DNA of 64,000 bases from Chthoniobacterales bacterium (GTDB lineage Bacteria > Verrucomicrobiota > Verrucomicrobiia > Chthoniobacterales > UBA6821), in NCBI GenBank assembly GCA_026461395.1, contig JAPJNA010000049.1:3516-67515 (forward strand), written 5' to 3'. Of the stretch, positions 6,757-36,728 are shown one piece after another. How positions within the stretch are numbered: the first letter of the stretch is position 1; every line of letters starts with the position of its first letter. A program made the translations under genes and the position numbers. A model generated the notes under the pieces. It was given only the letters and a program-made list of their open reading frames with translations, was not told where the DNA came from and searched no databases.

Positions 6757-6763
6757 GCCGGCC

Positions 6764-8248: not shown

Positions 8249-8261
8249 GGGCGGATAATAA

Positions 8262-9179
8262 TCAGCTCATCGCTTCGAGGCGATGAGAGAGTTCCCGGGC
8301 AATCTCACGGAGTAGCGCTCCAGAGCCATTGGGAAGTGATCCGGCGAGAGATGCCGCTTTAGACAGATGCGCAAGTGCATGACTGCGCGCCTTCTCCGAT
8401 GCCTCGTTGATTGGGCAACCGCTTGCCGCGGCAATCACTAGCAGTGCATTGACGGAAAGGGTCCCGCGATCTTGCTCCACATCCTCCATATCATCGGCGA
8501 TCTGATATCCGATGGCAAAATGCTCAGCGGCACGCCGCGCGTCCTCCGACCACATCCCTTTGGAGGAACCCTTAAGGGCAAGCTCCAGAGGAAGACTCAA
8601 AAGTGCCCCTGACTTGGCGGAGGCGATGGTGTCGTATGCAGCCATGTCGCTCTCTTCATCTCCGATCGGGACTAACCGCGCGCACTGACCCCCTATCACG
8701 ACTGCAATACGAGAGTGAACTAAGGATAGCAACTCGGGAAGCAGAAGCACGTTACTGAATCGTGCAAGGGCTGCATAGGCGGCTGAGAGAAGCAAATCCC
8801 CGGAACACAGGGCGACATGGAAGCCATAGGCTGCGTGGACGGTTTCGACTCCACGCCGGAATTGTTGGCGATCTTCCAGATCATCATGCACAAGAGAAGC
8901 GTTGTGGATGATCTCGACGCATGAGGCAATGGCCACCGAATCCTCAGGCGGAAGCCCAAGGGCACTTCCTGCAGAGAGTGCAAGCCTGGCACGAATACGC
9001 TGACCTCCAGAGGAGAGGTGATAGGACGCGGCGCGGGTTGAGTCCGATCGCCCCTCAATCAATCCCGCCGATCCCGCCGGCGATGCATGAACTACTTCCG
9101 TCATCCTTTCCTCCACCACGCCGAGAAGGGACTCGCCATGGAGTCCTGCTCCTACTCTTATCTTCGGAATCGTGGACAT
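8262..9179 (-). CDS. crtE: Geranylgeranyl diphosphate synthase
   Basis: GGQRIR, HNASLVHDDLED, KSGAL, YQIADDMED aspartate motifs; heads the crt genes. Confidence 0.85.
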   Translation of the reverse strand: MSTIPKIRVGAGLHGESLLGVVEERMTEVVHASPAGSAGLIEGRSDSTRAASYHLSSGGQRIRARLALSAGSALGLPPEDSVAIASCVEIIHNASLVHDDLEDRQQFRRGVETVHAAYGFHVALCSGDLLLSAAYAALARFSNVLLLPELLSLVHSRIAVVIGGQCARLVPIGDEESDMAAYDTIASAKSGALLSLPLELALKGSSKGMWSEDARRAAEHFAIGYQIADDMEDVEQDRGTLSVNALLVIAAASGCPINEASEKARSHALAHLSKAASLAGSLPNGSGALLREIARELSHRLEAMS

Positions 9180-9230
9180 AGTGGTAGACCTAGGCGATAG
9201 TGCCCGAGAACTAACCTTAGTTTATAAAGG

Positions 9231-9262
9231 AAATCCGTGCGCCGAATAAACCGGCGCACGGA
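9231..9262 (-). terminator. Hairpin plus partial U-tract after the rhodopsin gene
   Basis: tccgtgcgccg-aataaac-cggcgcacgga (11-bp perfect stem); minus strand continues tttccttta. Confidence 0.65.
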
Positions 9263-9276
9263 GAAACCCCTAAACG

Positions 9277-10068
9277 TTACTTGGCGTGAGCGTCTGTCTC
9301 AGTGACAGCAGCGGCCCAGATGATGACACCGAAAGCGATTTTGTTGAGCACGTCGGCCAAGTTATAAACAATGTTCAGGCCTTTCATGCTATCGTCGTGG
9401 CTCATACCGGTCAGGTAGCCGACAAAGTAACCGATGGGATAGATCGCCCATCCGAAGGTGACGATCAGACGCATGAGGTTGAACGCCGTCTTGACTGCAG
9501 GAGGCGACTGGTGGGCATTGATGCGGCTGGCCTCGCCGAAGAAAATCTCGAAAAGGATGTAGGCCCAACCGACCATTCCTACAATGAATGCAGGAAGTGC
9601 GGGAACATAACCGGCCTCGCCCACATATCCGCCGACGAGCATGACAAGGGTTCCAATCAGCAAGCGCCAGAAAACGCCTGCGGGAACCTTCGTGATTGCC
9701 GAGAGGATCAGGAAGAACTCCACCATGAGAAGTGGCACAGTGATGAGCCAGTCAATGTAGCGGTAGACGGTCGGGGTGTCGTGGGTGGTTACCCAAACCT
9801 CACGCATGTAGAAGTAGTGAACGGCGGCAACTAAGGTCACGAGTCCGGAGACGGTGAGGGAAGTCTTCCACTTTCCAGAAACTCGTTGGGTTTCGAGGAA
9901 GAAAAACGCGGTGGAAGCGACAAGCGCCATGGAGATCAGCCAGAAAGAAATTCCGACAAAATCATTTGGCTCAAGGACAACTCCTGCGGAGGCCTGAGCT
10001 CTGGCAGGGATGAGGAGAGCCGCAAATGCGAATAGCGATAGTTTGGGGAACAGGGAACGTATCTTCAT
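9277..10068 (-). CDS. Proteorhodopsin (DTE proton pump, green-tuned)
   Basis: RYIDWLITVPLLMVE (D/T/E, Leu at the 105-equivalent), AVHYFYMR His, DVLNKIAFG retinal Lys, N-terminal signal peptide. Confidence 0.96.
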   Translation of the reverse strand: MKIRSLFPKLSLFAFAALLIPARAQASAGVVLEPNDFVGISFWLISMALVASTAFFFLETQRVSGKWKTSLTVSGLVTLVAAVHYFYMREVWVTTHDTPTVYRYIDWLITVPLLMVEFFLILSAITKVPAGVFWRLLIGTLVMLVGGYVGEAGYVPALPAFIVGMVGWAYILFEIFFGEASRINAHQSPPAVKTAFNLMRLIVTFGWAIYPIGYFVGYLTGMSHDDSMKGLNIVYNLADVLNKIAFGVIIWAAAVTETDAHAK

Positions 10069-16977: not shown

Positions 16978-17646
16978 ATGATCCGACTCGTCAAAGCCTC
17001 CCGCTCCTACGGCACACCTCCAGTCACCGCACTCGACTCGGTTTCTCTGGAGATCGGGCGCGGTGAATTCATCGCCATCACCGGGGCCAGCGGTTCGGGC
17101 AAAAGCACGCTGCTGAACCTGCTGGGAGGTCTTGACCACCCCACCTCGGGCGAGGTCATCGTGGATGGGATCCACCTGGAACATGCGAATGACCAAACCC
17201 TGACCCAGTACAGGAGGCTTAAGCTGGGGATCGTCTTCCAGTTCTTCAACCTACTTCCCTCCATGACCGTTGTGGAGAATGTCGAGCTGCCTCTCTTGCT
17301 ACGTGGCGATCCCTCCTCGGGAGTCAGGCAAGCTGCCCTGGCTATGCTCGATCAGGTCGGGATGACTCAGCGTGCCATGCACTTCCCCCACCAGCTCAGC
17401 GGAGGCGAGATGCAGCGGGCTGCCATTGCCAGGGGACTGGTCCATGGCCCCTCCCTCCTGCTGGCGGATGAACCGACGGGGAATCTGGACAGTGAAAACG
17501 CTTCCCAAGTCCTCGATGTGATTGCAAAGATTGCTTCCCGCCGCACCTCCACCGTCATTATGGTAACCCACAGCGATTCGGTGGCGGCCTTGGCCGACCG
17601 GCGTATCAGGATGAAGGATGGACGCATCACTCCGGATGCCACCTGA
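16978..17646 (+). CDS. LolD-like ABC transporter ATP-binding protein
   Basis: GASGSGKST, LSGGEMQR, ADEPTGNLD; start ATG 16978. Confidence 0.9.
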   Translation: MIRLVKASRSYGTPPVTALDSVSLEIGRGEFIAITGASGSGKSTLLNLLGGLDHPTSGEVIVDGIHLEHANDQTLTQYRRLKLGIVFQFFNLLPSMTVVENVELPLLLRGDPSSGVRQAALAMLDQVGMTQRAMHFPHQLSGGEMQRAAIARGLVHGPSLLLADEPTGNLDSENASQVLDVIAKIASRRTSTVIMVTHSDSVAALADRRIRMKDGRITPDAT

Positions 17647-17695
17647 CGCGCCTCTTCATTATCCTCCTAACACCTTAAGACACAGAAGATTTTCC

Positions 17696-19000
17696 ATGGA
17701 ACTCCAGCGCACTCTTGCGAAGTCTGCCAGCCTCACTGGCGCCGCCCTCCACAACGGAGGCAATGTCACCCTGACCATCCATCCGGCTCCAGTCTGCTAC
17801 GGTTATAAATTCCGCCGGTCGGATCTTCCTGATGAGCCGATTGTGGATGCCTTGGTCGAGCATGTGAAGACTGTCGAGCGGTCCACCACACTCGTGCAGG
17901 GAAATGCCAAGATCCAGACCGTCGAGCATGTCCTCTCGGCCTTGGCCGGCCTCGGTGTTGATAATGCCCTCATCGAGATGGACGCGAACGAGCCTCCGAT
18001 TGGCGATGGCAGTGCCGCCCCCTATGTCGCCCTGATCCAGCAGGCAGGCATCATTGACCAGGATGCTGCCCGCTCACCCTTCGAGCTAGGCCAACCGATT
18101 CACCTGGAGACTAGTGGCGGCTCCATCATGTCGGTCTTCCCTCATCCGGGATTCAAGATTTCCTGCACCCAGGCAAATCACGACGGCCGCTTCACCCAAT
18201 ACCTCTCCCTGGAGATCACCCCCGAGGTGTATGCGCGGGAAATCGCCCCCGCGCGCACCTTCGTTCATTACGAGGATGTGAAGGATCTGATGGAAAAGGG
18301 CCTTATCAAGGGTGGCAGTCTGGAGAATGCCCTCGTGATCCGTGGCGAATCAGTTCTCAGTAAAGAACCGCTCCGCTTTCAGGACGAGTTCGTCCGTCAT
18401 AAGATCCTCGATATCATCGGCGATCTGGCACTTGCGGGACGTCCCCTGAGAGGTCACGTCGTCGCCGTCAGGCCCGGCCATGGCCCCAATACAGAACTCG
18501 CGCGCGCCATTGCCAAGCGCCATAGCGACCTTCTGGCCATGGCTCCCACTCCAGTAACCTCGTCGGCACCCGTGATGGATATCAACGAGGTGATGCGTGT
18601 CCTTCCCCACCGCTATCCCTTCTTGATGGTGGACCGTGTCGTGGAATTCGACGGCGACACCAAGGCCGTCGGAGTCAAATGTATCTCGATCAACGAGCCC
18701 TTCTTCCAGGGTCACTTCCCGGGCCACCCAGTCATGCCGGGAGTCCTGCAACTCGAGGCCATGGCCCAGGTCGCCTCGATTGTTATGATGCGCAAGAGCG
18801 AGAATACCGGAAAAATCGGCTACTTCATGAGCGCCGATGAAGTGAAGTTCCGCAAGCCAGTTTTCCCTGGCGACACACTCTTCATTCATGTGGAGATGCT
18901 CAAGGCTCGCAAGAATCTGGGCAAAGCTTCCTGCAAGTGCGTCGTGAACGGCGATGTGGTGAGCGAAGGATCACTCCTCTTTGGCATCATCAACAAATAA
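17696..19000 (+). CDS. lpxC-fabZ: Bifunctional LpxC-FabZ
   Basis: EHVLSAL and HKILD (LpxC) followed by LPHRYPFL and GHFPGHPVMPGVL (FabZ); start ATG 17696. Confidence 0.95.
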   Translation: MELQRTLAKSASLTGAALHNGGNVTLTIHPAPVCYGYKFRRSDLPDEPIVDALVEHVKTVERSTTLVQGNAKIQTVEHVLSALAGLGVDNALIEMDANEPPIGDGSAAPYVALIQQAGIIDQDAARSPFELGQPIHLETSGGSIMSVFPHPGFKISCTQANHDGRFTQYLSLEITPEVYAREIAPARTFVHYEDVKDLMEKGLIKGGSLENALVIRGESVLSKEPLRFQDEFVRHKILDIIGDLALAGRPLRGHVVAVRPGHGPNTELARAIAKRHSDLLAMAPTPVTSSAPVMDINEVMRVLPHRYPFLMVDRVVEFDGDTKAVGVKCISINEPFFQGHFPGHPVMPGVLQLEAMAQVASIVMMRKSENTGKIGYFMSADEVKFRKPVFPGDTLFIHVEMLKARKNLGKASCKCVVNGDVVSEGSLLFGIINK

Positions 19001-20719: not shown

Positions 20720-21610
20720 ATGAGCAAAGAAACCATCGCAGTCGTAGGAGTCGGCCGTATGGGCGCCAACATGGCGCACCGCCTCAAGGACCGGGGATAC
20801 AGCGTCGCCGCCGTCCATGACAGCCATGCCCCGCTGGCCGCAGAACTGGCCGCCGAACTTGGGGCGGAGGCGGTGGGATCGCTGGCGCGCGTCACGGAAC
20901 TGGCCGACGTCATCCTCACCGTCGTCACCGACGATAAAGCGATGCACGCGATTTTCCAACCGCAGGGGGACAGCCTGGTGAACGGAGCGAAGGGGAAGCT
21001 CTTCATCAACTGTGCCACCGTCTCCCCTGCGGTGCATCTTGCCGTCGAGGAAGTCGCCCACCAGGCGGGCGCTGAATCCCTCGAGGCCTGCATGGCTTCG
21101 AGCATCACCCAGGCCCGGGAAGGAACGCTCTACCTCATGACTGGAGGTGCCGACCAAGCCTTCCGTCGCGCCGAACCGATCCTCAAGGATCTCAGCGCTT
21201 CGCTCCGTCACATTGGCGCCACTGGCAAGGCGGCCCAGGTCAAGGCCCTCGTCAACATGGTCATGAACATCAATACCGCAGGCCTCGCCGAGGGACTTGG
21301 ACTGGGAGCCGCCCTCGACCTCGACCTGACCATGCTGCGTGAGGTCTTCTCCCAGACCGGCGCGAACTCCCGGGTGCTCGTGACCGACGGCGAGGATATG
21401 CAGAACCGCGACCACTCCTGCTTCTTCTCCGGCGCCCACGCCGCCAAGGACAGCGGTATCGCACTGGCACTGGCGCAGGAAAAGGGACTTACCCTCCCCC
21501 TTGCCGAGGCGACCAAGAAGCAGTATGACCGGATGGTCTCCGAGGGCTTCGGCGAACTCGATAAATCCGGTGTCGCAGAACTCACCTTCCTGGAAAGGGG
21601 AAGCAAGTGA
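20720..21610 (+). CDS. 3-hydroxyisobutyrate/6-phosphogluconate dehydrogenase-family NAD(P) oxidoreductase
   Basis: GVGRMGANMA, NCATVSP, KALVN, AKDSGIA. Confidence 0.88.
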   Translation: MSKETIAVVGVGRMGANMAHRLKDRGYSVAAVHDSHAPLAAELAAELGAEAVGSLARVTELADVILTVVTDDKAMHAIFQPQGDSLVNGAKGKLFINCATVSPAVHLAVEEVAHQAGAESLEACMASSITQAREGTLYLMTGGADQAFRRAEPILKDLSASLRHIGATGKAAQVKALVNMVMNINTAGLAEGLGLGAALDLDLTMLREVFSQTGANSRVLVTDGEDMQNRDHSCFFSGAHAAKDSGIALALAQEKGLTLPLAEATKKQYDRMVSEGFGELDKSGVAELTFLERGSK

Positions 21611-21663
21611 CAGCCCCCGAATCCCGACTCACCTTTAAGATTCCCAAACAACATCCATCAACC

Positions 21664-22476
21664 ATGAAACTCCTCTTCATCTGCCCCCGCTGGGGAAGCG
21701 AATCGCTTCCCTCCCAAGACTTCATCACCAAAGTACGCGAGGCGGGATATGATGGTGTCGAGATCGGGTTCCTAGATGTCGATCCCGCGGCCGAGGAGAC
21801 CGTCGCCCTCGCCAAGGCCGCCGGACTTGCGTTAATCACCCAGCACTGGACAACCCAGGATCGCGATCTTGAGAAGCACCTCGAACTCTACGGCCAGCGA
21901 CTGCACCGAATGGCGGGATTCCAGCCCCTCTTTGTCAACAGCCACACAGGCCGTAACCTTTTCAGCCTTGAGGAGAACAAGCGTGTCTTCGCCGTTGCTG
22001 AAAAAGTGGCCGCCGAGACGGGCATCCCGATCCTTCACGAGACCCATCGAGGCCGTTGTCTGCACACGCCATGGAGAACCGGGGAGTTGTTGGCCGCGAT
22101 GCCTGCCACGCGGATCGTGCTCGATATGTCACATTGGTGCAATGTCTGCGAATCGCTGCTCGAAGATCAGGATGACCTGATCGAACCCCTTCTTCCTGCC
22201 GTCGACCATATCCACGCCCGCGTGGGATGGCAGCATGGTCCCCAGGTTAGCGACCCGCGCGCGCCCGAGTGGAGCGATGCCGTGAATGCGCACCTCAAGT
22301 GGTGGGACAAGATCATTGCCGCACGCCGGGCTTCGGGCATCGCCCAGTTCACGATCTGCCCCGAATTCGGGCCGCCACCTTATCTGCCTCTCCTTCCCTA
22401 CACCCAGCAACCCGTCGCCAACCAGTGGGACATCAATGTCCACATGATGAACTTCCTGCGCGACCGCTATCGGTGA
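21664..22476 (+). CDS. Xylose-isomerase-like TIM-barrel sugar phosphate isomerase/epimerase
   Basis: GYDGVE, HETHRGR, D.SHW, HIHARVG, PEFGP; start ATG 21664. Confidence 0.8.
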   Translation: MKLLFICPRWGSESLPSQDFITKVREAGYDGVEIGFLDVDPAAEETVALAKAAGLALITQHWTTQDRDLEKHLELYGQRLHRMAGFQPLFVNSHTGRNLFSLEENKRVFAVAEKVAAETGIPILHETHRGRCLHTPWRTGELLAAMPATRIVLDMSHWCNVCESLLEDQDDLIEPLLPAVDHIHARVGWQHGPQVSDPRAPEWSDAVNAHLKWWDKIIAARRASGIAQFTICPEFGPPPYLPLLPYTQQPVANQWDINVHMMNFLRDRYR

Positions 22477-22515
22477 AATACCATCGACTGCTCCCCGTTC
22501 GTTGCTTGGTGAGGC

Positions 22516-23421
22516 TCACCAATAGATGCGCGGAGCGATTTCCGGTGGAAGGGGATTCGGGGGCGGCGGCTCGCTCCGCAACAGGGAGCGCCTCACTAGC
22601 GTAGGGGATTTCCCGTAAACGCGGGTGAAGCAGCGCGTGAAGTAGAGCGGGTTCTCGAAGCCGCAGCGGTCGGCAATCTCCTTCACCGCGAGACCGGAAC
22701 GTCCGAGTAAAGCGAGCGCAAGCTGGAGCTTGAGCAAACGGAAAGTCTCCATGGGCGAGTGGCCGAGCGACTTCCGGAAGAGGCGGCAGAGATGCTTCTC
22801 GGTCACGCCCGACCGTGCCGCCAACTCCCCCAACTGGAGGGCCCGAGACGGCTTGATGTCGAGGGTCTCCCTCATCAGGTTAAGCGAGGTATGAACGGAA
22901 TCGGGGAGGCGGGCTCCGATGGAGATCCCGCTCTCATGCGAGGGCTTGAGAAGGACCGTCATCAGACACCGTAGGAAACGGCTCTCCTCAACACCGGCGC
23001 TGAGCGTGGGCCAATCCGACTCCCCTTGCGTGGCGATGTTCTCGAGAAGATGCCTCAGCATCGGGGCGACGACCTCCGGGGGATTGGCATGGCAGACGGG
23101 CCACTTCCCCGGATCGGGCCAGTCCGAGGGGATCGTGGCGATGTCGAAATGGATATAGGCATGGCGTGTCGCGAGGCGGCGGTCCCACCGGTAGGACTCC
23201 CGGAAACCGGGGCGGGCCAGGATCACGCTCCCGGGCGGAGCCTGATGCTCCTCATCATCATGCCGGTAGGTCGCCGTCCCCTCGATCATGAGCACCAGTT
23301 CATAGTCCTTCAGGGTCCGTGGAACCAGGCGGTCGCCCGGACGGTAATGGACCACTCCCCCGTAGAGATATTTCAGAACGAGGGCATCCTCGCGGGCTGG
23401 CTCGATGTCTGGAAAGGGCAT
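22516..23421 (-). CDS. AraC-family transcriptional regulator
   Basis: N-terminal cupin; C-terminal HLCRLF..IADRCGFENPLYFTRCF double HTH. Confidence 0.92.
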   Translation of the reverse strand: MPFPDIEPAREDALVLKYLYGGVVHYRPGDRLVPRTLKDYELVLMIEGTATYRHDDEEHQAPPGSVILARPGFRESYRWDRRLATRHAYIHFDIATIPSDWPDPGKWPVCHANPPEVVAPMLRHLLENIATQGESDWPTLSAGVEESRFLRCLMTVLLKPSHESGISIGARLPDSVHTSLNLMRETLDIKPSRALQLGELAARSGVTEKHLCRLFRKSLGHSPMETFRLLKLQLALALLGRSGLAVKEIADRCGFENPLYFTRCFTRVYGKSPTLVRRSLLRSEPPPPNPLPPEIAPRIYW

Positions 23422-23448
23422 AAGGGTCGTGCATAAAATTGCACAGAC

Positions 23449-23464
23449 CTTGGGTTAACCCAAG
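23449..23464. promoter_or_regulatory. Perfect 16-bp palindrome, candidate operator
   Basis: cttgggttaacccaag in the divergent araC/desaturase spacer. Confidence 0.45.
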
Positions 23465-23555
23465 CACTCATGCGAATTTCGTGCATGTTTTCACGACTCC
23501 TGACCATTGGCAAAACTCACGGAAGGACTAGCTTGAGGAAGTAATTCCCATCCTA

Positions 23556-23583
23556 CCATCATCCATCACTCATCACCCACCAC
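23556..23583 (+). repeat. Four heptamers abutting the start codon
   Basis: ccatcat ccatcac tcatcac ccaccac ATG. Confidence 0.7.
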
Positions 23584-25872
23584 ATGAGCACCGACCACGC
23601 AACCGCCGCTATCTCCAAACCGCCGACGAAGCTCGACTACAGCCTGACCGGTGAAAACGCCGCCCGCGCCATCGAGCGCGGCCTCGCCGAAGCGGACTGG
23701 TACCAATGCGCCGTTCCCCGGGCGACCATGAGGAAGTTGCTGGAGCGGCGCGACGGACCGGCGATCCGCGACACGCTTCTCTGGTTTGCCCTGATCCTTG
23801 GTGCCGGATACGCCACGTTCGCGCTCTGGGGCACCTGGTGGGCTCTCCTCCCTTACTTAGTGTATGCGGTGCTCTACGCCTCAACCTCCGACTCGCGATG
23901 GCATGAGGCGGGCCATGGCACGGCCTTCAAGACTGACTGGATGAACAATGCCCTCTACGAGATCGCTTCCTTCATGGTCATGCGCGAATCGACCGTCTGG
24001 CGCTGGAGCCATACCCGTCATCACAGCGATACGATCATCGTCGGCCGCGATCCCGAAATCTTGGTTCCGCGCCCACCCGACATCGCCGGGATCATCAAGG
24101 CCTTCTTCCACCTTCCAGTCTATCCGAATTATTTCAAACATATCCTCATGCACGCCTTCGGACGGATGAGCGCCGATGAGAAAACCTACATTCCTGAGAG
24201 CGAGTTTCCCAAGATCTACCGCAAGGCACGGATCTACTTCCTCATCTATGCCTCGGTCATCGCCCTTGCGATAGCGACCCGCAGTATCCTGCCCCTCCTC
24301 TTTGTGGGCCTTGCCAACATGGTAGGATCGTGGCTCATGGTCGTCTACGGTCTGACCCAGCATACTGGCCTCGCGGAGAACGTCCTCGATCACCGCCTGA
24401 ACTGCCGCACCGTCCGGATGAACTTTATCAACCGGTATCTCTACTGGAACATGAACTACCACGTAGAGCACCACATGTTCCCGCTCGTTCCCTATCATGC
24501 GCTCCCGCGCCTCCACGAGGCCGTTAAGGAGGATATGCCTACACCCTACCATAGCCTCCTCCATGCCTGGAGCGAAATCATTCCCTCCGTCCTGCGACAG
24601 GTGAAGGATCCCGCATATCACGTGAAGCGCAAGCTGCCCGAACCGAAGGCGCGTCTGCAGGAGGGCCTCCACGCCAACGAGGCGCAACCGGATGCTGAGG
24701 GGTGGATCGAGGTCTGCTCCGCGCAGGATCTCGGCCCGGCCGACGTGATCCGCTTCGACCACGGCAAGAAGACTTACGCCCTCTACCGGGACGAACATGG
24801 CACGCTCTTCGCAACCGACGGCATCTGCACCCATGGCAACACCCACCTTGCCAACGGCCTCGTCAAGGGATCGATCATCGAGTGTCCGAAGCATAATGGC
24901 CGCTTCAACCTCGCCGACGGATCCCCAGCGCGCCCGCCGATCTGCCGCGGACTGGCCACCTATCCTCTCGAAGAGCGCAACGGACGCCTTCGTCTTAACA
25001 TCGCACAGATCGGGGGTGCCGGTGCCCGCCATCAGAAAAGCTATACCCTGCGCGTCGTCAGCAACCAGAGCGTGGCCACCTTCATCAAGGAACTCGTCCT
25101 CGAACCGGCCGATCCCTCCGAAAAGATCGCCTTCACCCCCGGCGACTACCTCCAGCTCGACATCCCCTCCTATGGGATGATTCGGTTCCGGGAATTCGAT
25201 ATTCCCGAACCGTACGCATCGGTCTGGGAAGCCCAGCACGTCTTCGACCTCGTCGCGCGGAATCCCGAAGGCGGCCGCCGTAACAACTACTCGCTGGCCT
25301 CCAACCAGCAGACTGAGCGGATCCTCCGCTTCAATGTCCGCATTGCCACGCCGCCACCCGGACAGGATTGCCCCCCCGGCGTCGGTTCCGCCTATGTCTT
25401 CAACCTCAAGCCCGGCGACACCGTCACCGCCATCGGCTCCTTCGGCGACTTCCACATCAAGCCTACCCAACGCGAGATGGTCTACATCGGCGGAGGCGCC
25501 GGGATGGCCCCGCTGCGCTCCCATCTCTCTCATCTCTTCGAGACGGAGAAGACTGCACGCAAGGTCAGCTTCTGGTACGGAGCCCGCTCACGCCAAGAGA
25601 TCTACTACAACGAATATTTTGATCAGCTTTCCAGGGAGCACTCGAATTTTAATTTTAACCTCGCCCTCTCCTCTCCTCTTCCCGAGGATGCCTGGAAGGG
25701 ACTGGAGGGCTTCATCCACGAAGTCGTGCTGGAACGCCACCTCAAAGACCATCCCAATCCCAAAGCCGTCGAATACTATCTCTGCGGCCCCCCGATGATG
25801 GTCAAGGCCTGCACCAAGATGCTCGCCGACCTTGGCGTTCCCGCCAACCAGATCGCCTACGACGAGTTTTGA
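23584..25872 (+). CDS. Fusion of membrane di-iron desaturase/oxygenase (MocD-like), Rieske ferredoxin (MocE-like) and NqrF-like FAD/NAD(P)H reductase
   Basis: His boxes H107EAGH, H143TRHH, H293VEHH; Rieske C415-x-H..C434-xx-H; NYSLAS, GGGAGMAP, WYGARS, YYLCGPP. Confidence 0.9.
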   Translation: MSTDHATAAISKPPTKLDYSLTGENAARAIERGLAEADWYQCAVPRATMRKLLERRDGPAIRDTLLWFALILGAGYATFALWGTWWALLPYLVYAVLYASTSDSRWHEAGHGTAFKTDWMNNALYEIASFMVMRESTVWRWSHTRHHSDTIIVGRDPEILVPRPPDIAGIIKAFFHLPVYPNYFKHILMHAFGRMSADEKTYIPESEFPKIYRKARIYFLIYASVIALAIATRSILPLLFVGLANMVGSWLMVVYGLTQHTGLAENVLDHRLNCRTVRMNFINRYLYWNMNYHVEHHMFPLVPYHALPRLHEAVKEDMPTPYHSLLHAWSEIIPSVLRQVKDPAYHVKRKLPEPKARLQEGLHANEAQPDAEGWIEVCSAQDLGPADVIRFDHGKKTYALYRDEHGTLFATDGICTHGNTHLANGLVKGSIIECPKHNGRFNLADGSPARPPICRGLATYPLEERNGRLRLNIAQIGGAGARHQKSYTLRVVSNQSVATFIKELVLEPADPSEKIAFTPGDYLQLDIPSYGMIRFREFDIPEPYASVWEAQHVFDLVARNPEGGRRNNYSLASNQQTERILRFNVRIATPPPGQDCPPGVGSAYVFNLKPGDTVTAIGSFGDFHIKPTQREMVYIGGGAGMAPLRSHLSHLFETEKTARKVSFWYGARSRQEIYYNEYFDQLSREHSNFNFNLALSSPLPEDAWKGLEGFIHEVVLERHLKDHPNPKAVEYYLCGPPMMVKACTKMLADLGVPANQIAYDEF

Positions 25873-25878
25873 GCGCCC

Positions 25879-26250
25879 ATTCCTAGCACCTGCTCACCCT
25901 TCGGCCAACTCCCGGACGGCCCGTTCCGTCGAGCGCTTCACCCTGGCGAACGGCAAGGGACTCGAATGCGATGTCATTCCCCTGGGGAGAACCATTACCG
26001 ATCTACGTCTCCCACACCCACCCGGCGAGCGGGCTCACCATGACGGCCCTCACAATGCAAGATTGCGTGCGGGTTTTCAGCGCAACCGTCCTCGACGGCT
26101 CCCTGATAGGGAAGTCTGGAAGGCCTTATGAAAAACATGCGGGACTCTGTCTGGAGCGCCAGGAAGCCCCGGAGCGGTGCACACGCCCCTATTGGGTGAC
26201 ATCATTCTCCGCCCCGGAAAGCACTACGATCAGACCACCCTCTCCCGGTC
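25879..26250 (+). pseudogene. galM: Aldose 1-epimerase (mutarotase) remnant with frameshifts and a large deletion
   Basis: Segments FGQLPDG, VERFTLANGKG, HPASG..LDGSLIGKSGRPYEKHAGLCLE and IILRPGKHYDQTT are GalM-like and lie in shifting frames. Confidence 0.75.
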
Positions 26251-27649
26251 ACCCCTTCCAGCCGAAGAACTTCCGTGACTTGATGATCTCGGCTACCTTG
26301 GCGGGAACCATTTGCTCCCATTCCGGATCACCTTTCTGAAGTTTGGTCAGGGCCTTGGCAGAATCGATGCCTAGGTAATCGAGCTTGCAACCGGCCATCG
26401 GAACGATGAAACGATTCTCGATCAGGTAGGCGTACAAAGCCCGCAGACTGGGATCGACCTTGTAGGAGGCGGCTTCGATGATGTGTCCCTTGTCGTCCTT
26501 GGTGGGATAGACATAGAGACGCACCCCCTTCTTGAAGAGCCGCCCAAGACCCTCGAGAATGCCTCCGTCCAGATTGGTGTAGTACTTCTCGTCGAAGATC
26601 TCGTGGAGACTCGGAATGCCAAGCGGCATCCCTATGGCGCGGTCAGTGTAGCGCCGCAAATACTGAATCAGCCGGTAGAACTCACCGTAATTGGAGATAA
26701 GCACAGTCTGACCTAGAGCACCGAGCATGTCGACGCGGTCGAGGAAATCCTGCAGGTCGAGTTCCCCGCCGCTCATCAGATTCCTCATCGTGATTTCCAG
26801 GATGATCTCGGGCTTCTCGTCGTTCAGTTCCTCCTCCATTAGGAACATCGAGTGACCGCACTCGAGCATGTCGTAAGCGACATTGGTGACCGGTCGGAAA
26901 CTGCCGCGCTCGATGATGAGGGGCTTGTGATAAAAGGCATCCGCCGCCTGCACCACTTCCCCATCGGGACGGAATAGCACGGCCTGAGCAAGACCCTGGG
27001 TGACCAGCTCCAGACACATGATTCGGTTGTCAACCATCGCAAAATCAGGTCCCGAGAACCGGATCATGTCGATCTCGATGCGCGTTGACTCGAGATCATC
27101 CAGGAGCGAGGCAATGAATTTCTTCAGATCCTTGCGAAGGAAAAACGCCCCGTAGATGAGGTTCAGCCCGACGATGCCCAGCGCCTCCTGCTGCTCGAGG
27201 TTATGTGGATCGAGCATGCGGACATGCATGATGATCTCGTTGGGCTGAGCACGGGGATGACTCTGGTAGCGGATTCCCATCCATCCGTGGGATTCATTGA
27301 GCGTCTTGTAGGACCTGGCCGCAACAGTATCGGCAAAGGCAAAGAAGGTGCGCTCCGCTCCGACCTTCTCGTCGAGACGTTCGATCAGCAGATCGTACTC
27401 ATGGTCGAGCATCTCGCCCAAGCGCTGACGACTGACAAAGCGCGTACTCTTCCCGTAGATCGCATCCGAGAAGGTCATGTCATAGGCGGAGATCGTCTTG
27501 GCTACAGTCCCAGCGGCACCGCCTACATGGAAGAAACGTCGGGCGACTTCCTGGCCTGCCCCAATCTCGGCGAAGGTGCCATAGATCGGCTTAGCCATGT
27601 TGATCTCAAAGGCCTTCTTGTTCGCTTTCAGATCGATCGGATTGAGCAT
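26249..27649 (-). CDS. Conserved protein of uncertain function (nucleotidyltransferase-like; family often labelled nicotinate-nucleotide adenylyltransferase)
   Basis: YGTFAEIGAGQEVAR, AKTISAYDM, degenerate GSFRPVT motif, C-terminal WEQMVP. Confidence 0.65.
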   Translation of the reverse strand: MLNPIDLKANKKAFEINMAKPIYGTFAEIGAGQEVARRFFHVGGAAGTVAKTISAYDMTFSDAIYGKSTRFVSRQRLGEMLDHEYDLLIERLDEKVGAERTFFAFADTVAARSYKTLNESHGWMGIRYQSHPRAQPNEIIMHVRMLDPHNLEQQEALGIVGLNLIYGAFFLRKDLKKFIASLLDDLESTRIEIDMIRFSGPDFAMVDNRIMCLELVTQGLAQAVLFRPDGEVVQAADAFYHKPLIIERGSFRPVTNVAYDMLECGHSMFLMEEELNDEKPEIILEITMRNLMSGGELDLQDFLDRVDMLGALGQTVLISNYGEFYRLIQYLRRYTDRAIGMPLGIPSLHEIFDEKYYTNLDGGILEGLGRLFKKGVRLYVYPTKDDKGHIIEAASYKVDPSLRALYAYLIENRFIVPMAGCKLDYLGIDSAKALTKLQKGDPEWEQMVPAKVAEIIKSRKFFGWKG

Positions 27650-31811: not shown

Positions 31812-33056
31812 TCAGCTTCTCTTCAAGAGAACATCCCGTTCGTAGGAACGGACTTCGCCCATCCAGTCGGTGGGGACCTCCTGACGGTGGCAAAATTCCT
31901 GCCAGACCGCCCCGACAGGGAGAGTCTTGGACTCCTCCATGAGGGCCAGGCGCTCCCAGAGTGCGCCGGAGTTCTCGGCGGCGCGGAGTTTGTCGAGAGG
32001 TTGGAGAAGCGCATGAAGGAGCGCCTTCTGGGCGCTCCGGGTGCCGATGACCCACGCGGCGATGCGGTTGATGGAGGCGTCGAAGAAATCGAGCCCGATG
32101 TGGGTGCGGCCAAGGAAGTCGCCGCGCACCAGTTCCTCCATGATGGCGATCGTCGGGTCATCCAGCAGGACGACATGGTCGCTGTCCCAACGCACGCCGC
32201 GGCTGACATGGAGCAGGAGTCCGGGAACAAACTGGAGCACCGAGGAGATCTTGTCGGCGATCTGCTCGGTGGGGTGGAAGTGTCCGGCATCAAGGCAGAT
32301 CAGCTTCTGCCTTGTCACGGCGTATCCGAGGTAGAACTCGTGGGAGCCCACGACGTAACTCTCGCTGCCGATCCCGAAGAGCTTGCACTCGACGGCGTCG
32401 AGGTTGATCGCCGGGTCGATCTTCTCCACAAAGATGGCGTCAAGCGAGGCCTCAAGCCGCTCGCGGGGCCCCTTGCGGTCCGCCGGAAGATCCTTCGAGC
32501 CGTCCGGGATCCAGACATTGGTCACGCAGGCCGATCCGAGCTGGCGGCCGATCTCGGCACCGATGCGGCGGCAGGCCTTACCATGCTCGATCCAGTAGTC
32601 GCGGATCCCTTGGTCGGGGCTGGAGAGGGTGTAGCCCGAGGAGGCCTTCGGATGGGCGAAGAAACTCGGGTTGAAATCCATGCCGAGCCCCTGTGCCTTG
32701 GCCCAGTCGATCCAGCCCTGAAACTCGGCGACGCCGTAGTCGCTGCGCTCCGTTTTCCGGCCCCCGAGCTCCGCGTAGCAGGCGTGGAGGTTAAGACGGT
32801 GGCTCCCGGGGATCAGGGAGAGCGCTTTTTCCAGGTCCTGACGGAGCTCTTCCGGCGTCCGCGCCTTGCCGGGATGGTTCCCCGTGGCGGCCAGACCGCT
32901 TCCGGCAAGGTCGGCTTCCGCTTTCTCAAATCCACCCACATCATCCCCCTGCCAGCAGTGCAGCGAGATCGGCGTGGAGGCGAGACACTTGATCACCTCC
33001 TCGGTGTCGACCCCGATTGAGGCGTAGGTTTCCTTGGCAAGTGGGTAAGCGTTCAT
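31812..33056 (-). CDS. rhaA: L-rhamnose isomerase
   Basis: [55 protein letters not shown]; start ATG 33056. Confidence 0.95.
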
Positions 33057-33110
33057 GCTTTTATTGATGATGTGGTTGGGTGTGAAGGGAAGTTTTCCGT
33101 GGAGCGGTGG

Positions 33111-33130
33111 TAGGGAAGCGCGCTTCCCTA
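33111..33130. other. Perfect 20-bp palindrome at the rhaT stop
   Basis: tagggaagcgcgcttcccta. Confidence 0.6.
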
Positions 33131-34303
33131 GCCTTGACCCTTGAGCCAGGTCCCGATGCCGATGATGATCGTGGAAAGAATCAGCGTGCCGATGCCCATG
33201 GCAATAAGGGCGTGGGTCTTTTTGCTCGCCCCCTTCCACTCGTGGAAGATCCATCCCCACATCGTGCTAAAGATGATGATGCTGGCCATGTGGAGCGTCC
33301 AACTGGCGAAGCCGAACCTGCCCATCTGGGTCTCGCCCATCGTGTAGAAGAAGAACTGTAGGTACCAGATCGTCCCGGCCAGGGCGGAGAGGATGTAGTT
33401 CCTGACCATCGGCACCCGGAGACCTTCGCCTATCGGATCGTGGTCGGGGGCTGCAACGGGAGTGATGCTCCCATGCTCACCACCCCCGGCACCGCCGAGA
33501 GCCGCATGTTCCTTACGCACTGTGCCGCTGAGGTACTGGTAGGCCGTGCCGTTCTTGAAGTGGAGGAACAGACACCAGAGGAAGTTCGTCGTGAAGCCGC
33601 CGAGCAGAACGACCACCAGCTTCGGAAGTCCTGTCCAGATCTGATCCGTGCCGGCCAGCAGCGAGGCCTCTCCGATCGGTTTGCCGGCCGTGAGGGCGAA
33701 GGCGAAGCAGGCGCTCATGACGCCGGAGAAGGTGGCGACAGCCATCCCCTTGGGGAAGTTGAACTCCTTGACGGCTTCCGTCTTCGCCGACTCGTCCATT
33801 TCCCGCTCCTTGTTGAGTCCCGCCAGGGCGGCGAGTCCGATGCCAAAGAGGCAGGCCACGACACCGATCAGCGTGATCTGGCCGGGCAGCGTGGAGGCGA
33901 TCTGGACGATTGTTTCGTCGCACGGAATGGAGGGGATGAAGAGCTTGGCGATGGGCGGAAGGAGCGTCCCGAATGCGGCGCAGTAGCCGAGGGCGACACC
34001 CATGCCGAGCGACATGCCGAGATAGCGGATCGTGAGGCCGAAGGTCAGGCCACCCAGACCCCAGAGACATCCGAAGAAATAGGTCCACAAGAGCGTACCG
34101 CCACTCTGGCGCGTGATCACACCGTGCAGATCATGTGTCATCACCAGCGCCATCAACGACGGCATGATGATCCAGGAGGCGACACCGCCGACCATCCAGG
34201 CGGTTTCCCAGGCCCACTTCTTCACAAAGCGGTACGGGACATAGAAACTTCCGGAGGCAAAGCCGCCGAGCCAGTGAAAGAAGACGCCGAGGAAGGGATT
34301 CAT
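33128..34303 (-). CDS. rhaT: L-rhamnose/H+ symporter
   Basis: [35 protein letters not shown]. Confidence 0.92.
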
Positions 34304-34325
34304 GACCGGGGGGAGGAGGAATGCG

Positions 34326-35759
34326 TCAGCAAACGGTCGCGATCTCCACGCCGAGAAGCCGTGCGATCTTGATCAGCTTGCCGGAGAGGTGACCCACCCC
34401 GACCGCGCAGTGGTGAGCAGGCCCCTGCGCGTTCCATTCGTTCATGAAGCGGCGAGCTCCGATGGGGAACCTGTAGCGGCTGTTGGTGTTACCGATCTCA
34501 AGGATCGGTCCGGGAATGGACTCCCCCTCGGCGACGAGGAGCTTGAGCCTGTTGTCCACGGTCTCCACCACGCTGAGCAGGGTGACGGGACCGTGCTTAA
34601 CCGACATCTCCACGGAGAGGCCACTTCCTACCTTGCCGTGGTAAACCGCCAGGGGGCGCACGCGGGTCGGTCCCTCGGCGATGGCGATGTGCCCTGGGCC
34701 GTCGTGCCCCATCAGGACGACATCATCGTTCCAGTCAACGGCGTAATACTCGGTGAAGGATCCGCCGGCACCGAGCAGATCCATGATCTTCATGGCCTGG
34801 ACGTTCTTGATCTCGAGCTCCCCGGCGACGGGACAACCCTGCGCGGTGAGCAGCGAGTTGCCCAGGATGATGGAACTAACCGATTCCTCGTTCTCTGCAA
34901 TGCCGGTGCCCATGTGGTAGTAGGCCAAGGAACCGAGCCGCTTCCTGCGGACGAGGCGGTCCAGGGCGACGGAAGTGCGGGCCGCCCGCAGCAACTCCTC
35001 CACGGGGCAATCCTCCTGGACATCGAACTCCCTGCGGAACTCCTCCACCCGCGCCTCGGCCTCGGACGAGCTGACATCGCGGCGCAGGGCGCTGAGTTCC
35101 TCGACCTCAAGGATCTCGATATGCGTGCCGAATACCGAACTCTGAAGCGTGAGGTCGGAGTAGATGTCGAGCATCCCGTTGTAATAATGGCCCATGACCC
35201 CAAGACGGTTGTGCTCCATCCCGTGGACCACCCGGGCGGCGTCTATCCAGTCGTCGATCTCCCCCCAGCACACGGGATCATCCTCGAGCCTTCCGGTGAC
35301 CTGGTGAAACGGTATCCGGGCCCGCGTCAGGACATTGGCGATCTCGGGCACGGGACACGCCCCGCAGTGGGCCAGCCATTCGCCGGTCATCGCCGTGCGG
35401 TCGCCCATGCGGTTGAAGGAGGCGTAATCGATGGCCGCCTCCGGGGAGAGGTTCAGCAGAACGACCGGCACCTTGGCGCGCCGCACCATCGGAAGGACGG
35501 TCGAGGAAAGGGCGTAGGTGGTCGAATGGATGAGCAGGAGATCGATGTCGGCCACCCTCAACTCGTGACCCGCGGCAAGCGCCCTCTCCGGAGAATCAAC
35601 GAGGCCGAGATTCACGATCTGCACGCCGGGTCGCCCGAGCTTCGATCCGATCCGCGCCGTGTAACCCTCCAAGCGTTCCTTCAGGCCGGGAAACTGGGGC
35701 CAGTAGGTGTCGAGTCCGATTCCGACAAGTCCAATGCGGACGCTAGAGGGGTTTTCCAT
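34326..35759 (-). CDS. L-fucose/L-arabinose isomerase-family protein
   Basis: GLDTYWPQF, GVMGHYYNGMLD, AGELE, MGHDGP, GPAHH; start ATG 35759. Confidence 0.8.
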   Translation of the reverse strand: MENPSSVRIGLVGIGLDTYWPQFPGLKERLEGYTARIGSKLGRPGVQIVNLGLVDSPERALAAGHELRVADIDLLLIHSTTYALSSTVLPMVRRAKVPVVLLNLSPEAAIDYASFNRMGDRTAMTGEWLAHCGACPVPEIANVLTRARIPFHQVTGRLEDDPVCWGEIDDWIDAARVVHGMEHNRLGVMGHYYNGMLDIYSDLTLQSSVFGTHIEILEVEELSALRRDVSSSEAEARVEEFRREFDVQEDCPVEELLRAARTSVALDRLVRRKRLGSLAYYHMGTGIAENEESVSSIILGNSLLTAQGCPVAGELEIKNVQAMKIMDLLGAGGSFTEYYAVDWNDDVVLMGHDGPGHIAIAEGPTRVRPLAVYHGKVGSGLSVEMSVKHGPVTLLSVVETVDNRLKLLVAEGESIPGPILEIGNTNSRYRFPIGARRFMNEWNAQGPAHHCAVGVGHLSGKLIKIARLLGVEIATVC

Positions 35760-35822
35760 CTCGGCAAAGTAACAGATGGCCTCCGTCGGGGAATGCGGAT
35801 AATGATCTTTTTCATACAGAAT

Positions 35823-36728
35823 ATGACCAACTTTCCCAAGAGGGATGAGCGGACGAAGGATGACTATTTCCGCTATTTTCCCGACACCAAGGACCTCGAA
35901 CGCTGGGGCATCTGGGTCTCCGCTTCCGGCATCGCCACCGTGGCGCCGGGGAACCCCTACCCTCCGCTCCCCCACCCCGGGGACCATCATTTCGAGTGGG
36001 AACGGGGACGGGTCCTTGAATCCCTCCAGATCGTGATGGTGACCGCGGGCGAAGGACTACTCGAAACCCGGCAGACCGGCGCGAAGCGGATCAGCGCGGG
36101 GAGCGTCATCCTCCTTCGCCCCGGGGTATGGCACCGCTACAAGCCCGAGCCGGAGACGGGCTGGAGGGAAAGCTGGATCGAGATGCGGGGGCGGGTGGTC
36201 ACGGATCTCCTGCAATCCGGAACCATTCCCGACGGCCCCCTGCTCCGGGGAAGCCGGCTCACGCCTCTTCTCGAGGAACTCCTTGAGACGATCCACAGGA
36301 GAACGGGCGCGAAAATCCCCACCCACCGGCCGGAACTCTCCGCGGAGGCGCTCAGGATGCTGGCGCTCCTCTGCGGCATGGAGGCGGAGGAACCCGCCGG
36401 GGAGACCCTCCGCGCGGCCGTCACGCGGGCCGAACACCACCTGGCCGAACACCACGCCGAATCCCTCGACATGCAGGATATGGCAAGGATGCTCGGGGTC
36501 TCTTACTCTAGCTTTCGCCGCGCCTTCCGGAAAGAGACAGGCCTCTCCCCCTGGCAGTATCTCATGAGCGTCCGCCTGAACCGTGCGCGCCGACTGCTCT
36601 CCTCACGTGAGACCAAGCTCGAGTCGGTCGCGGCCGCCGTCGGGTTCAGCTCCGCCTTTCACCTCTCTGCGGCGTTCAAAAAGGCCTACGGAGTTTCCCC
36701 CGGCAACTGGAGAAAACAGGATCGGTAA
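35823..36728 (+). CDS. AraC-family transcriptional regulator
   Basis: Real start ATG 35823 inside the supplied 808-aa ORF; PGVWHRY cupin, SYSSFRRAF, VGFSSAFHLS. Confidence 0.9.
   Translation: MTNFPKRDERTKDDYFRYFPDTKDLERWGIWVSASGIATVAPGNPYPPLPHPGDHHFEWERGRVLESLQIVMVTAGEGLLETRQTGAKRISAGSVILLRPGVWHRYKPEPETGWRESWIEMRGRVVTDLLQSGTIPDGPLLRGSRLTPLLEELLETIHRRTGAKIPTHRPELSAEALRMLALLCGMEAEEPAGETLRAAVTRAEHHLAEHHAESLDMQDMARMLGVSYSSFRRAFRKETGLSPWQYLMSVRLNRARRLLSSRETKLESVAAAVGFSSAFHLSAAFKKAYGVSPGNWRKQDR

Follow-up and report, generated by a model that had tools for sequence, protein, structure and literature searches.

What does a bacterium oxidize with a protein in which a membrane di-iron oxygenase, a Rieske ferredoxin and a flavin reductase are joined in a single chain? 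The question is raised by a 762-residue protein encoded in a stretch of 64,000 nucleotides from a Chthoniobacterales bacterium of the Verrucomicrobiota (contig JAPJNA010000049.1, assembly GCA_026461395.1). The whole stretch is referred to here as the window, and the gene and its product as the fusion. A methyl ether on a sugar obstructs the usual catabolic enzymes, and to our knowledge the sole characterised bacterial means of removing such groups from sugars is a three-component cytochrome P450 system of marine Bacteroidota. An original prediction, made from the letters of the window, took the fusion to be a non-haem methyl-sugar or cyclitol O-demethylase and not a lipid desaturase. The analysis described below brings us, with moderate confidence, to read the fusion as a self-sufficient, membrane-anchored MocD-type monooxygenase, dependent on O2 and NADH, that would most likely O-demethylate an imported methylated aldose.

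The fusion protein

The gene and the three domains of its product are the following.

23584..25872, plus strand: 762-aa single-chain oxygenase fusion (Pfam, NCBIfam and PDB sequence matches; motifs)
About residues 14-372 of the fusion: MocD-like membrane di-iron domain, with the His boxes H107-EAG-H111, H143-TR-HH147 and H293-VE-HH297
About residues 371-473 of the fusion: MocE-like Rieske domain, with C415-x-H417 and C434-xx-H437
Residues 485-762 of the fusion: NqrF-like FAD/NADH reductase domain, with R566-NN-YS570 and GGGAGMAP at 636-643

Pfam places FA_desaturase (PF00487) at residues 84-325 (119 bits), Rieske at 374-461 and FAD_binding_6/NAD_binding_1 at 550-744. The top NCBIfam model for the Rieske part is MocE_fam (TIGR02377), whose 111 bits fall below a cut-off (136 bits) intended for free-standing proteins; PDB sequence and fold comparisons uphold the middle domain as a Rieske ferredoxin. 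The His boxes HEAGH, HTRHH and HVEHH, the Rieske signature CTH...CPKH, RNNYS and GGGAGMAP are invariant in 46 homologues, and four membrane helices are predicted. Judged by these motifs, the fusion holds a complete NADH-FAD-Rieske-di-iron chain within one membrane protein. Its ratio of nonsynonymous to synonymous substitution (dN/dS), averaged over the whole divergence, is 0.09-0.18, and the gene is under purifying selection.

The C-terminal 278 residues score 340 bits against the NqrF model of NCBIfam (TIGR01941), are 45-49% identical to the FAD/NADH domains of NqrF in a PDB sequence search (E 3e-86) and have a predicted fold that agrees with NqrF FAD domains at TMt 0.92; a fold search with the whole fusion model is dominated by this domain. 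NqrF was nevertheless rejected as the identity of the protein, since the FAD/NADH domain alone matches (model positions 128-403) and the neighbours are an AraC-family regulator and a galM gene. The membrane helix and plant-type 2Fe-2S domain of NqrF are replaced in the fusion by the di-iron and Rieske domains. The genome from which the window comes (2.03 Mb, 95% complete) has one copy of the fusion, no other NqrF-like gene and no nqr genes. The database label 'NqrF' on the fusion is an annotation error.

More than 3,500 homologues of the fusion were found. The best 120 are all 751-769 aa long, 76-99% identical and of the same architecture; they are labelled Opitutales, Opitutaceae, Terrimicrobiaceae, Methylacidiphilales or Verrucomicrobiota, and are usually named 'NqrF' or 'MocE subfamily'. 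Acidobacteriota and Planctomycetota also have members, which came to light when only the N-terminal domain served as query. Of 301 genomes sampled evenly across the phylum, about 27 contain the full-length fusion, some of them in two or three copies: the distribution is patchy, and the gene is an accessory one.

Kinship with MocD and MocE

The MocD protein of the canonical moc cluster of Phyllobacterium zundukense is 52.9% identical to residues 14-372 of the fusion over 359 aa, the full length of the domain, and its MocE is 49.5% identical to residues 371-473 (the range over MocE proteins is 49.5-55.6%). MocF (408 aa) has no similarity to the fusion, its best E value being 1.9. By these comparisons the fusion unites MocD and MocE in a single chain, where an NqrF-type reductase takes the place of MocF, to which it is not homologous. 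Residues 1-475 are matched in 572 plasmid records (51-55% identity over 94-98% of the query), where the two parts are split between adjacent genes annotated as 'fatty acid desaturase family protein' and 'MocE family 2Fe-2S ferredoxin'. The Phyllobacterium zundukense cluster runs in the order MocR-type regulator, sugar-binding protein, Gfo/Idh/MocA, mocD-E-F, PanB-like hydroxymethyltransferase and purU; the two genes that follow mocDEF suggest handling of one-carbon units.

MocDEF was reportedly modelled by Bahar in 1998 as a 'ferredoxin oxygenase complex' in the catabolism of rhizopine, a methyl-ether cyclitol, and the MocD family is used in rhizopine signalling circuits. Catabolism of rhizopine (3-O-methyl-scyllo-inosamine) needs mocDEF, which rhizopine induces (PMC10107442), and rhizobial mocDEF-like clusters adjoin a LacI regulator and a PF01261 TIM barrel (PMC3538637). 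MocDEF is found in Sinorhizobium, Rhizobium and Phyllobacterium, with many mocDEF-like clusters on rhizobial plasmids.

The two systems have in common their catalytic family (53% identity to MocD, with all His boxes), their family of Rieske carrier (50-56% to MocE), the logic of NAD(P)H to flavoprotein to Rieske protein to membrane di-iron centre, and a carbohydrate or cyclitol catabolic context with a PF01261 TIM barrel close by. They differ in that MocDEF is three separate genes and the fusion one polypeptide; that the reductase is the FAD-dependent, ~408-aa MocF in the one and an NqrF-like domain of the FNR fold in the other; that the regulator is MocR or LacI there and AraC here; and that the partners there are mocABC or inositol genes, but here, in a verrucomicrobial host, an aldose mutarotase. 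None of mocA, mocB, mocC and mocR lies in the gene neighbourhood of the fusion in the window. Thus the MocD-like and MocE-like features of the system are found, whereas a MocF-type reductase and a separate operon linked to moc or inositol genes are missing. The predicted non-haem alternative to a P450 is in this way supported, but not as something wholly new, MocDEF being a precedent that the prediction had missed.

The AraC-fusion-galM cassette

In the window the fusion gene lies between a divergent regulator and the remains of a mutarotase gene, both as predicted.

22516..23421, minus strand: cupin-type (AraC_binding) AraC-family regulator, divergent from the fusion (Pfam)
23422..23583, no strand: divergent control region between AraC and the fusion, a spacer of 162 bp
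25916..26247, plus strand: galM (aldose 1-epimerase) pseudogene (tblastn, blastn collinearity, three-frame translation; NCBIfam galM_Leloir E 1e-5)

Orthologues of the AraC protein (52-67% identity) stand beside the fusion in three other loci (L053, L056 and L057). The gene, with dN/dS of 0.12-0.15, is collinear with close relatives at 89.5% nucleotide identity, and synteny breaks exactly at its 3' end. It is a probable dedicated sensor and regulator of the cassette. In an alignment with the two nearest relatives, L066 and L068, the block 23469-23498 of the spacer (ATGCGAATTTCGTGCATGTTTTCACGACTC), 30 nt within a conserved stretch of ~68 nt, is invariant; three lineages have it unchanged although their coding DNA differs by 10-13%, and the block is better conserved than the flanking coding DNA. 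Its position and conservation make it probably an operator or promoter of the cassette.

The GalM proteins of homologous loci match 25916-26247 in two frames by tblastn: what is left amounts to ~30 N-terminal and ~85 C-terminal codons in different frames, in place of an intact reading frame of ~330-350 aa (PF01263). L066, with a fusion 94% identical to that of the window, is collinear by blastn from the end of AraC to 26014 and resumes 662 bp further on, inside an intact galM of 333 aa; blastn also finds collinearity with L068. Three-frame translation places a second change of frame near 26162-26189. The sequence of this galM is that of a pseudogene, with at least two lesions, one of them a 662-bp internal deletion. 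The genome has an intact galM paralogue, 40-46% identical, at C9:5937-7073, adjoining a Sugar_tr transporter.

The order AraC, fusion, galM is kept in L066 and L068. This block is 84-90% identical to theirs in nucleotide sequence and the next gene 78%, and the synonymous divergence (dS) of the cassette is 0.3-0.5, as against about 1.05 for the flanking gene, which encodes a 466-aa protein. Two upstream contexts occur among close relatives, one with molybdenum cofactor and TauE genes and one with lpx, MBL-fold, dehydrogenase and TIM-barrel genes; a second assembled population keeps the order of the window (lpx, MBL, dehydrogenase, TIM, AraC, fusion). Synteny breaks at the end of AraC and the dS of the cassette is half that of the 466-aa neighbour, which suggests that AraC, fusion and galM travel together as a mobile cassette, relocated, recombined or exchanged en bloc.

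Loss of galM might be the onset of erosion of the whole pathway, the fusion being a decaying relic that is no longer used in this genome. The 662-bp deletion and second frameshift would fit such a history, as would the small genome and the rearranged upstream synteny. We think it quite improbable: neither the fusion nor AraC has a broken reading frame, no cofactor ligand is lost, the gene order is shared by a second assembled population, the genome keeps an intact galM paralogue, and the low dN/dS of the fusion also speaks against decay, although as an average over the whole divergence it is blind to very recent relaxation.

Neighbourhoods of homologous fusions

About 19 kb was fetched around each of 29 further loci, 27 of them with a copy of the fusion, one with a two-domain version and one with a stand-alone MocD-like gene, and three assembly loci were added; open reading frames (ORFs) of neighbours were called with a filter on GC content at third codon positions and then clustered. 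In 30 loci of other Verrucomicrobiota, Pfam families were tallied for up to three neighbouring genes on each side of the fusion, 162 proteins in all. The tally gave HTH_AraC 17 times, Aldose_epim 11, AP_endonuc_2 5, Gfo/Idh/MocA 4, URO-D 3, HIBADH-type dehydrogenase 3, sulfatase 3, glycoside hydrolase (GH) family GH43 2, then rhamnogalacturonan lyase, RACo (1) and others; farther out there were sulfatase (5), URO-D (3), MtaB (2), B12-binding (2) and RhaT (2). Counted by locus, AraC regulators adjoin the fusion in 15 (clusters c1 and c10), an aldose 1-epimerase occurs in 11, and URO-D family proteins are directly beside the fusion in 4; remotely related TIM-like proteins of ~300 aa (clusters c3 and c6) are encoded immediately downstream of it in 10.

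The order AraC (divergent), [URO-D], Aldose_epim, fusion is seen in Opitutus, Methylacidiphilales and Terrimicrobiaceae. Because the AraC-fusion-galM order recurs in many independent genomes, chance is ruled out as the reason for the adjacency. In one locus (L070) a homologue of 82% identity lies between a GH3 gene and a run of GH2, GH28, MFS_2 transporter, GH29 and GH27 genes, and RhaT-like genes are found near the fusion in L049 (42% identity) and L039 (30%). The contexts of the homologues are those of carbohydrates and methyl groups, not of lipids. As for the neighbours that the original prediction had named for such a survey, galM, transporters and glycoside hydrolases were found, and genes of formaldehyde detoxification were not.

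Would the Pfam name 'fatty acid desaturase' not be the simpler guide, making the fusion a lipid desaturase or hydroxylase with a built-in electron chain? The PF00487 score, the three His boxes and the four predicted membrane helices agree with that name, and lpxC-fabZ and lpxA genes lie 4 kb upstream. Even so, it is very improbable. Against DesB, the highest-scoring desaturase equivalog, the fusion reaches 33 bits where the cut-off is 500, in comparison with the 53% identity to MocD; one of the 162 flanking proteins in the 30 loci is lipid-related (a phosphatidylserine decarboxylase), and there are no fatty-acid synthesis genes among them; the distribution is patchy and cassette-like, under an AraC regulator of sugar type; and the lpx genes are not adjacent in close relatives. 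A lipid desaturase is accordingly rejected on gene context and model scores, the PF00487 match denoting membership of the superfamily only, and on this point the prediction, which had named a lipid context of homologues as the finding that would overturn it, has held.

In several genomes (L003, L004, L052, L057 and others) the fusion lies among URO-D-family, MtaB-like, corrinoid (B12-binding) and RACo proteins. Neighbours of this kind constitute a cobalamin-dependent methyl-transfer system, which could remove the same methyl group without O2.

The TIM-barrel and dehydrogenase genes

The prediction also placed a TIM-barrel sugar isomerase or epimerase and a hydroxyacid dehydrogenase beside the fusion, and both are present upstream.

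20720..21610, plus strand: beta-hydroxyacid dehydrogenase (HIBADH/tartronate-semialdehyde-reductase type), 296 aa (Pfam; NCBIfam below all equivalog cut-offs; PDB relatives)
21664..22476, plus strand (ORF open from 21607): xylose-isomerase-like TIM-barrel protein, 270 aa (PF01261)

The dehydrogenase is 61-63% identical to the products of genes in L038 and L049, which represent two other families of the class and have the order fusion, TIM-like (c6), dehydrogenase. The TIM-barrel protein scores 34.7 bits with PF01261 (cut-off 31.1), and its homologues are about 270 aa long. Its model has a mean predicted local distance difference test (pLDDT) score of 95.8; AsbF, allulose 3-epimerase and IolE resemble it at TM 0.6-0.67 with at most 18% identity, a likeness at the level of the superfamily only. 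By hhalign (94-97.5%) it is a remote homologue of the c3 and c6 clusters that directly follow the fusion in 10 loci, and it is 44-52% identical to the TIM proteins encoded beside two shorter relatives of the fusion, a two-domain version with the di-iron and Rieske parts (about 487 aa; L062, G218:C28) and a stand-alone MocD-like version (345 aa; L063, G104:C12), where they are its orthologues. The link of TIM barrel and fusion is recurrent, not exclusive. From its family, the protein might isomerize, epimerize or dehydrate the product once it is demethylated. The core of the cassette is AraC-fusion-galM, and the TIM-barrel and dehydrogenase genes are recurrent but optional partners.

Proposed function

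The mechanism that we propose begins with NADH reducing the FAD bound in the NqrF-like domain at the C terminus. From there electrons would pass one at a time by way of the internal Rieske [2Fe-2S] cluster to the di-iron centre, facing the cytoplasm and held by the three His boxes, where activated O2 would hydroxylate the methoxy carbon of the substrate; the resulting hemiacetal should collapse to the free sugar and formaldehyde, in the cytoplasm. The divergent cupin-AraC protein would sense the sugar and turn the fusion gene on. In the ancestral cassette the GalM mutarotase would have equilibrated the anomers of the released aldose; in the streamlined genome at hand the cassette galM has decayed, and the second galM elsewhere can presumably substitute for it. 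The TIM-barrel protein and the beta-hydroxyacid dehydrogenase probably process the product further. The electron path, the O-demethylation chemistry, the aldose substrate and the roles of AraC, GalM, the TIM barrel and the dehydrogenase are all inferred from kinship and context. The predicted O-demethylation of a methyl sugar or cyclitol is supported by homology to MocD (53%) and MocE (50%) together with the conserved context. As to the sugar, methylated fucose, rhamnose or galactose may be named by way of speculation, with RhaT-like transporters, the HIBADH-type reductase and the GH29 and GH28 contexts in mind.

The contents of the genome bear on the choice of pathway. No iolB was found in it, on which ground a canonical inositol route is rejected, and no protein of the URO-D/HemE family, on which ground a URO-D/corrinoid route of demethylation is rejected as well (both at 95% completeness). 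The fusion is therefore the sole candidate demethylase among the families searched. (Haem auxotrophy, an alternative route or a gap in the assembly might account for the lack of hemE.) A glutathione-dependent formaldehyde dehydrogenase is absent, a generic alcohol dehydrogenase alone being found, with 76 bits against a cut-off of 544.

An aldose is preferred to a cyclitol on the strength of GalM, the partner met most often, and of the missing iolB. The alternative, that the fusion is a cyclitol O-demethylase like MocDEF, would have it act on O-methyl-inositols (pinitol, ononitol, quebrachitol) or methylated aminocyclitols, with the TIM-barrel protein as an inosose isomerase or dehydratase and the dehydrogenase feeding the inositol pathway. 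The closest genetically studied system does act on 3-O-methyl-scyllo-inosamine (PMC10107442); PF01261 TIM barrels and Gfo/Idh/MocA proteins recur beside the fusion, as they do beside rhizobial mocDEF (PMC3538637); and IolE is among the proteins that the TIM-barrel model resembles. The most conserved partner of the fusion, however, is an aldose 1-epimerase, an enzyme for which a cyclitol pathway has no use, neither iolB in the genome nor MocR, mocA, mocB or mocC nearby was found, and glycoside hydrolases and sulfatases surround some of the homologues. We therefore regard a cyclitol as an unlikely substrate, if one to be kept in mind. A paper on pinitol (PMC9788770) concerns fungal P450s and iol genes, not MocD.

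A sugar might, alternatively, be hydroxylated or oxidized without demethylation, for example at the C6 methyl of a 6-deoxyhexose (rhamnose or fucose) or at another C-H bond of a modified sugar. Enzymes of the superfamily such as AlkB are generally known to hydroxylate terminal methyl groups, RhaT-like transporters are encoded near the fusion in three loci and rhaA and rhaT lie 6 kb away here, and the lack of formaldehyde-handling genes among those found would then need no explanation. The recurrence of URO-D, MtaB, corrinoid protein and RACo in the same loci nevertheless speaks for a methyl ether, the PanB-like gene and purU come after mocDEF in rhizobia, and housekeeping genes part the rhamnose genes from the cassette; this kind of chemistry seems to us improbable.

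Several points count against O-demethylation of an aldose and must be set beside the evidence for it. The galM of the cassette is dead in the window, so that the link to an aldose is weaker here than in relatives, and pairs of Gfo/Idh/MocA and TIM-barrel genes in some loci would also fit a cyclitol. Evidence for the demethylation step of MocDEF is itself genetic, to judge from what citing papers say of it, and no MocD-family enzyme assayed in vitro, nor any non-haem sugar demethylase, was found in the literature searched. In the structure model the di-iron domain is poorly predicted (pLDDT falls below 50 near the His boxes), and no structural inference is drawn from that part. The TIM-barrel and dehydrogenase genes converge on AraC from beyond and are outside the transcription unit of the fusion; they are absent from the loci of the two nearest relatives (L066 and L068), which have TauE and molybdopterin genes instead, and three orthologues of the TIM-barrel gene in other phyla do not adjoin MocD-like genes. 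A dedicated gene for formaldehyde detoxification was found neither in the genome nor among conserved neighbours. Lastly, the window has no glycoside hydrolase, and the host of this 2-Mb genome is not shown to be the polysaccharide degrader that the prediction supposed.

Comparison with other oxygenases and demethylases

In marine Bacteroidota 6-O-methyl-D-galactose is demethylated by a cytochrome P450 with a ferredoxin and a ferredoxin reductase (PMC6292453, PMC9400963). What is proposed for the fusion resembles this in its O2- and NAD(P)H-dependent hydroxylation of a methoxy group, yielding formaldehyde and the free sugar, and in the role of unlocking methylated sugars. The P450 is, in contrast, a soluble haem-thiolate enzyme of three components, the fusion a membrane di-iron protein of one chain, and the families are unrelated; the resemblance, such as it may be, is a functional analogy only.

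Fusions of AlkB to rubredoxin or to ferredoxin and reductase, and the two-component xylene monooxygenase XylM/XylA, are membrane di-iron hydroxylases, the AlkB fusions being self-sufficient. They share with the fusion of the window the fused redox partners and membership of a His-box membrane oxygenase superfamily that hydroxylates methyl groups, but their carriers are rubredoxin or plant-type ferredoxin and not Rieske proteins, and their substrates are hydrocarbons, in contexts of alkane or aromatic degradation.

The corrinoid O-demethylase and methanol methyltransferase systems (URO-D/MtaA-like protein, MtaB, corrinoid protein, RACo), which several genomes encode beside the fusion, would act on methyl groups of the same kind, removing or transferring them; their chemistry is an O2-independent methyl transfer and their proteins are unrelated to the fusion. 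The genome of the window encodes none of these systems.

Wider significance

A broader proposal, which we put forward tentatively and regard as rather doubtful, is that the ~760-aa fusions are widespread, unrecognised carbohydrate O-demethylases (membrane-bound, non-haem di-iron and self-sufficient) of Verrucomicrobiota, Acidobacteriota and Planctomycetota, and that with the TIM-barrel, HIBADH-type and RhaT-like proteins they make up a new pathway by which methylated (deoxy)hexoses are catabolized. It might take as substrates the O-methyl-fucose, O-methyl-rhamnose and O-methyl-galactose of algal and plant glycans, and would run parallel to the corrinoid-dependent, O2-independent route that other genomes encode in the same loci. 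For a single protein to demethylate sugars without haem would be biochemically new. Were the proposal true, a second, unrelated solution, in one protein, would explain how the abundant Verrucomicrobiota of water and soil, as well as Acidobacteriota and Planctomycetota, use methylated sugars of algae and plants, carbon-cycle models would gain an extra source of formaldehyde, biocatalysis a compact NADH-driven demethylase and the MocD family a first biochemical handle, and thousands of annotations as 'NqrF' or 'fatty acid desaturase' would stand to be corrected.

Other genes of the window

Three further genes lie downstream of the cassette.

26249..27649, minus strand: conserved 466-aa protein, convergent on the cassette (same position in L066 and L068)
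31812..33260, minus strand: rhaA (Pfam RhaA, 633 bits)
33128..34303, minus strand: rhaT-like transporter gene (Pfam RhaT, 220 bits)

The 466-aa protein has no match in Pfam, NCBIfam or PDB sequences; it is under purifying selection (dN/dS 0.10) and is probably not part of the cassette. The rhamnose module that had been predicted 6 kb away is present, rhaA and rhaT lying 5.9 kb downstream of the cassette, beyond the gene of the 466-aa protein, a 187-aa ORF, ispG and rseP. Its link to the fusion is weak because housekeeping genes intervene. Divergent from rhaT is a gene for an AraC-type regulator of 808 aa (34302-36728, plus strand), with AraC_binding and helix-turn-helix domains in its last ~240 residues; the ~560-aa N-terminal part has no Pfam match.

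On the other side, upstream of the dehydrogenase gene, are an MBL-fold gene, lpxA and lpxC-fabZ. The last encodes an LpxC-FabZ fusion of 460 aa (17618-19000, plus strand) and is followed by LpxA, an arrangement that a related contig shares.

Farther upstream there is a complete operon for a rhodopsin and the synthesis of retinal (3735-10068, minus strand), which encodes the beta-carotene dioxygenase Blh (3735-4649), lycopene cyclase (4646-5839), phytoene synthase (5836-6960), phytoene desaturase (6764-8248), a polyprenyl synthase (8262-9179) and a protein of the bacteriorhodopsin family (9277-10068). It suggests a planktonic, light-using Verrucomicrobium with a small genome.

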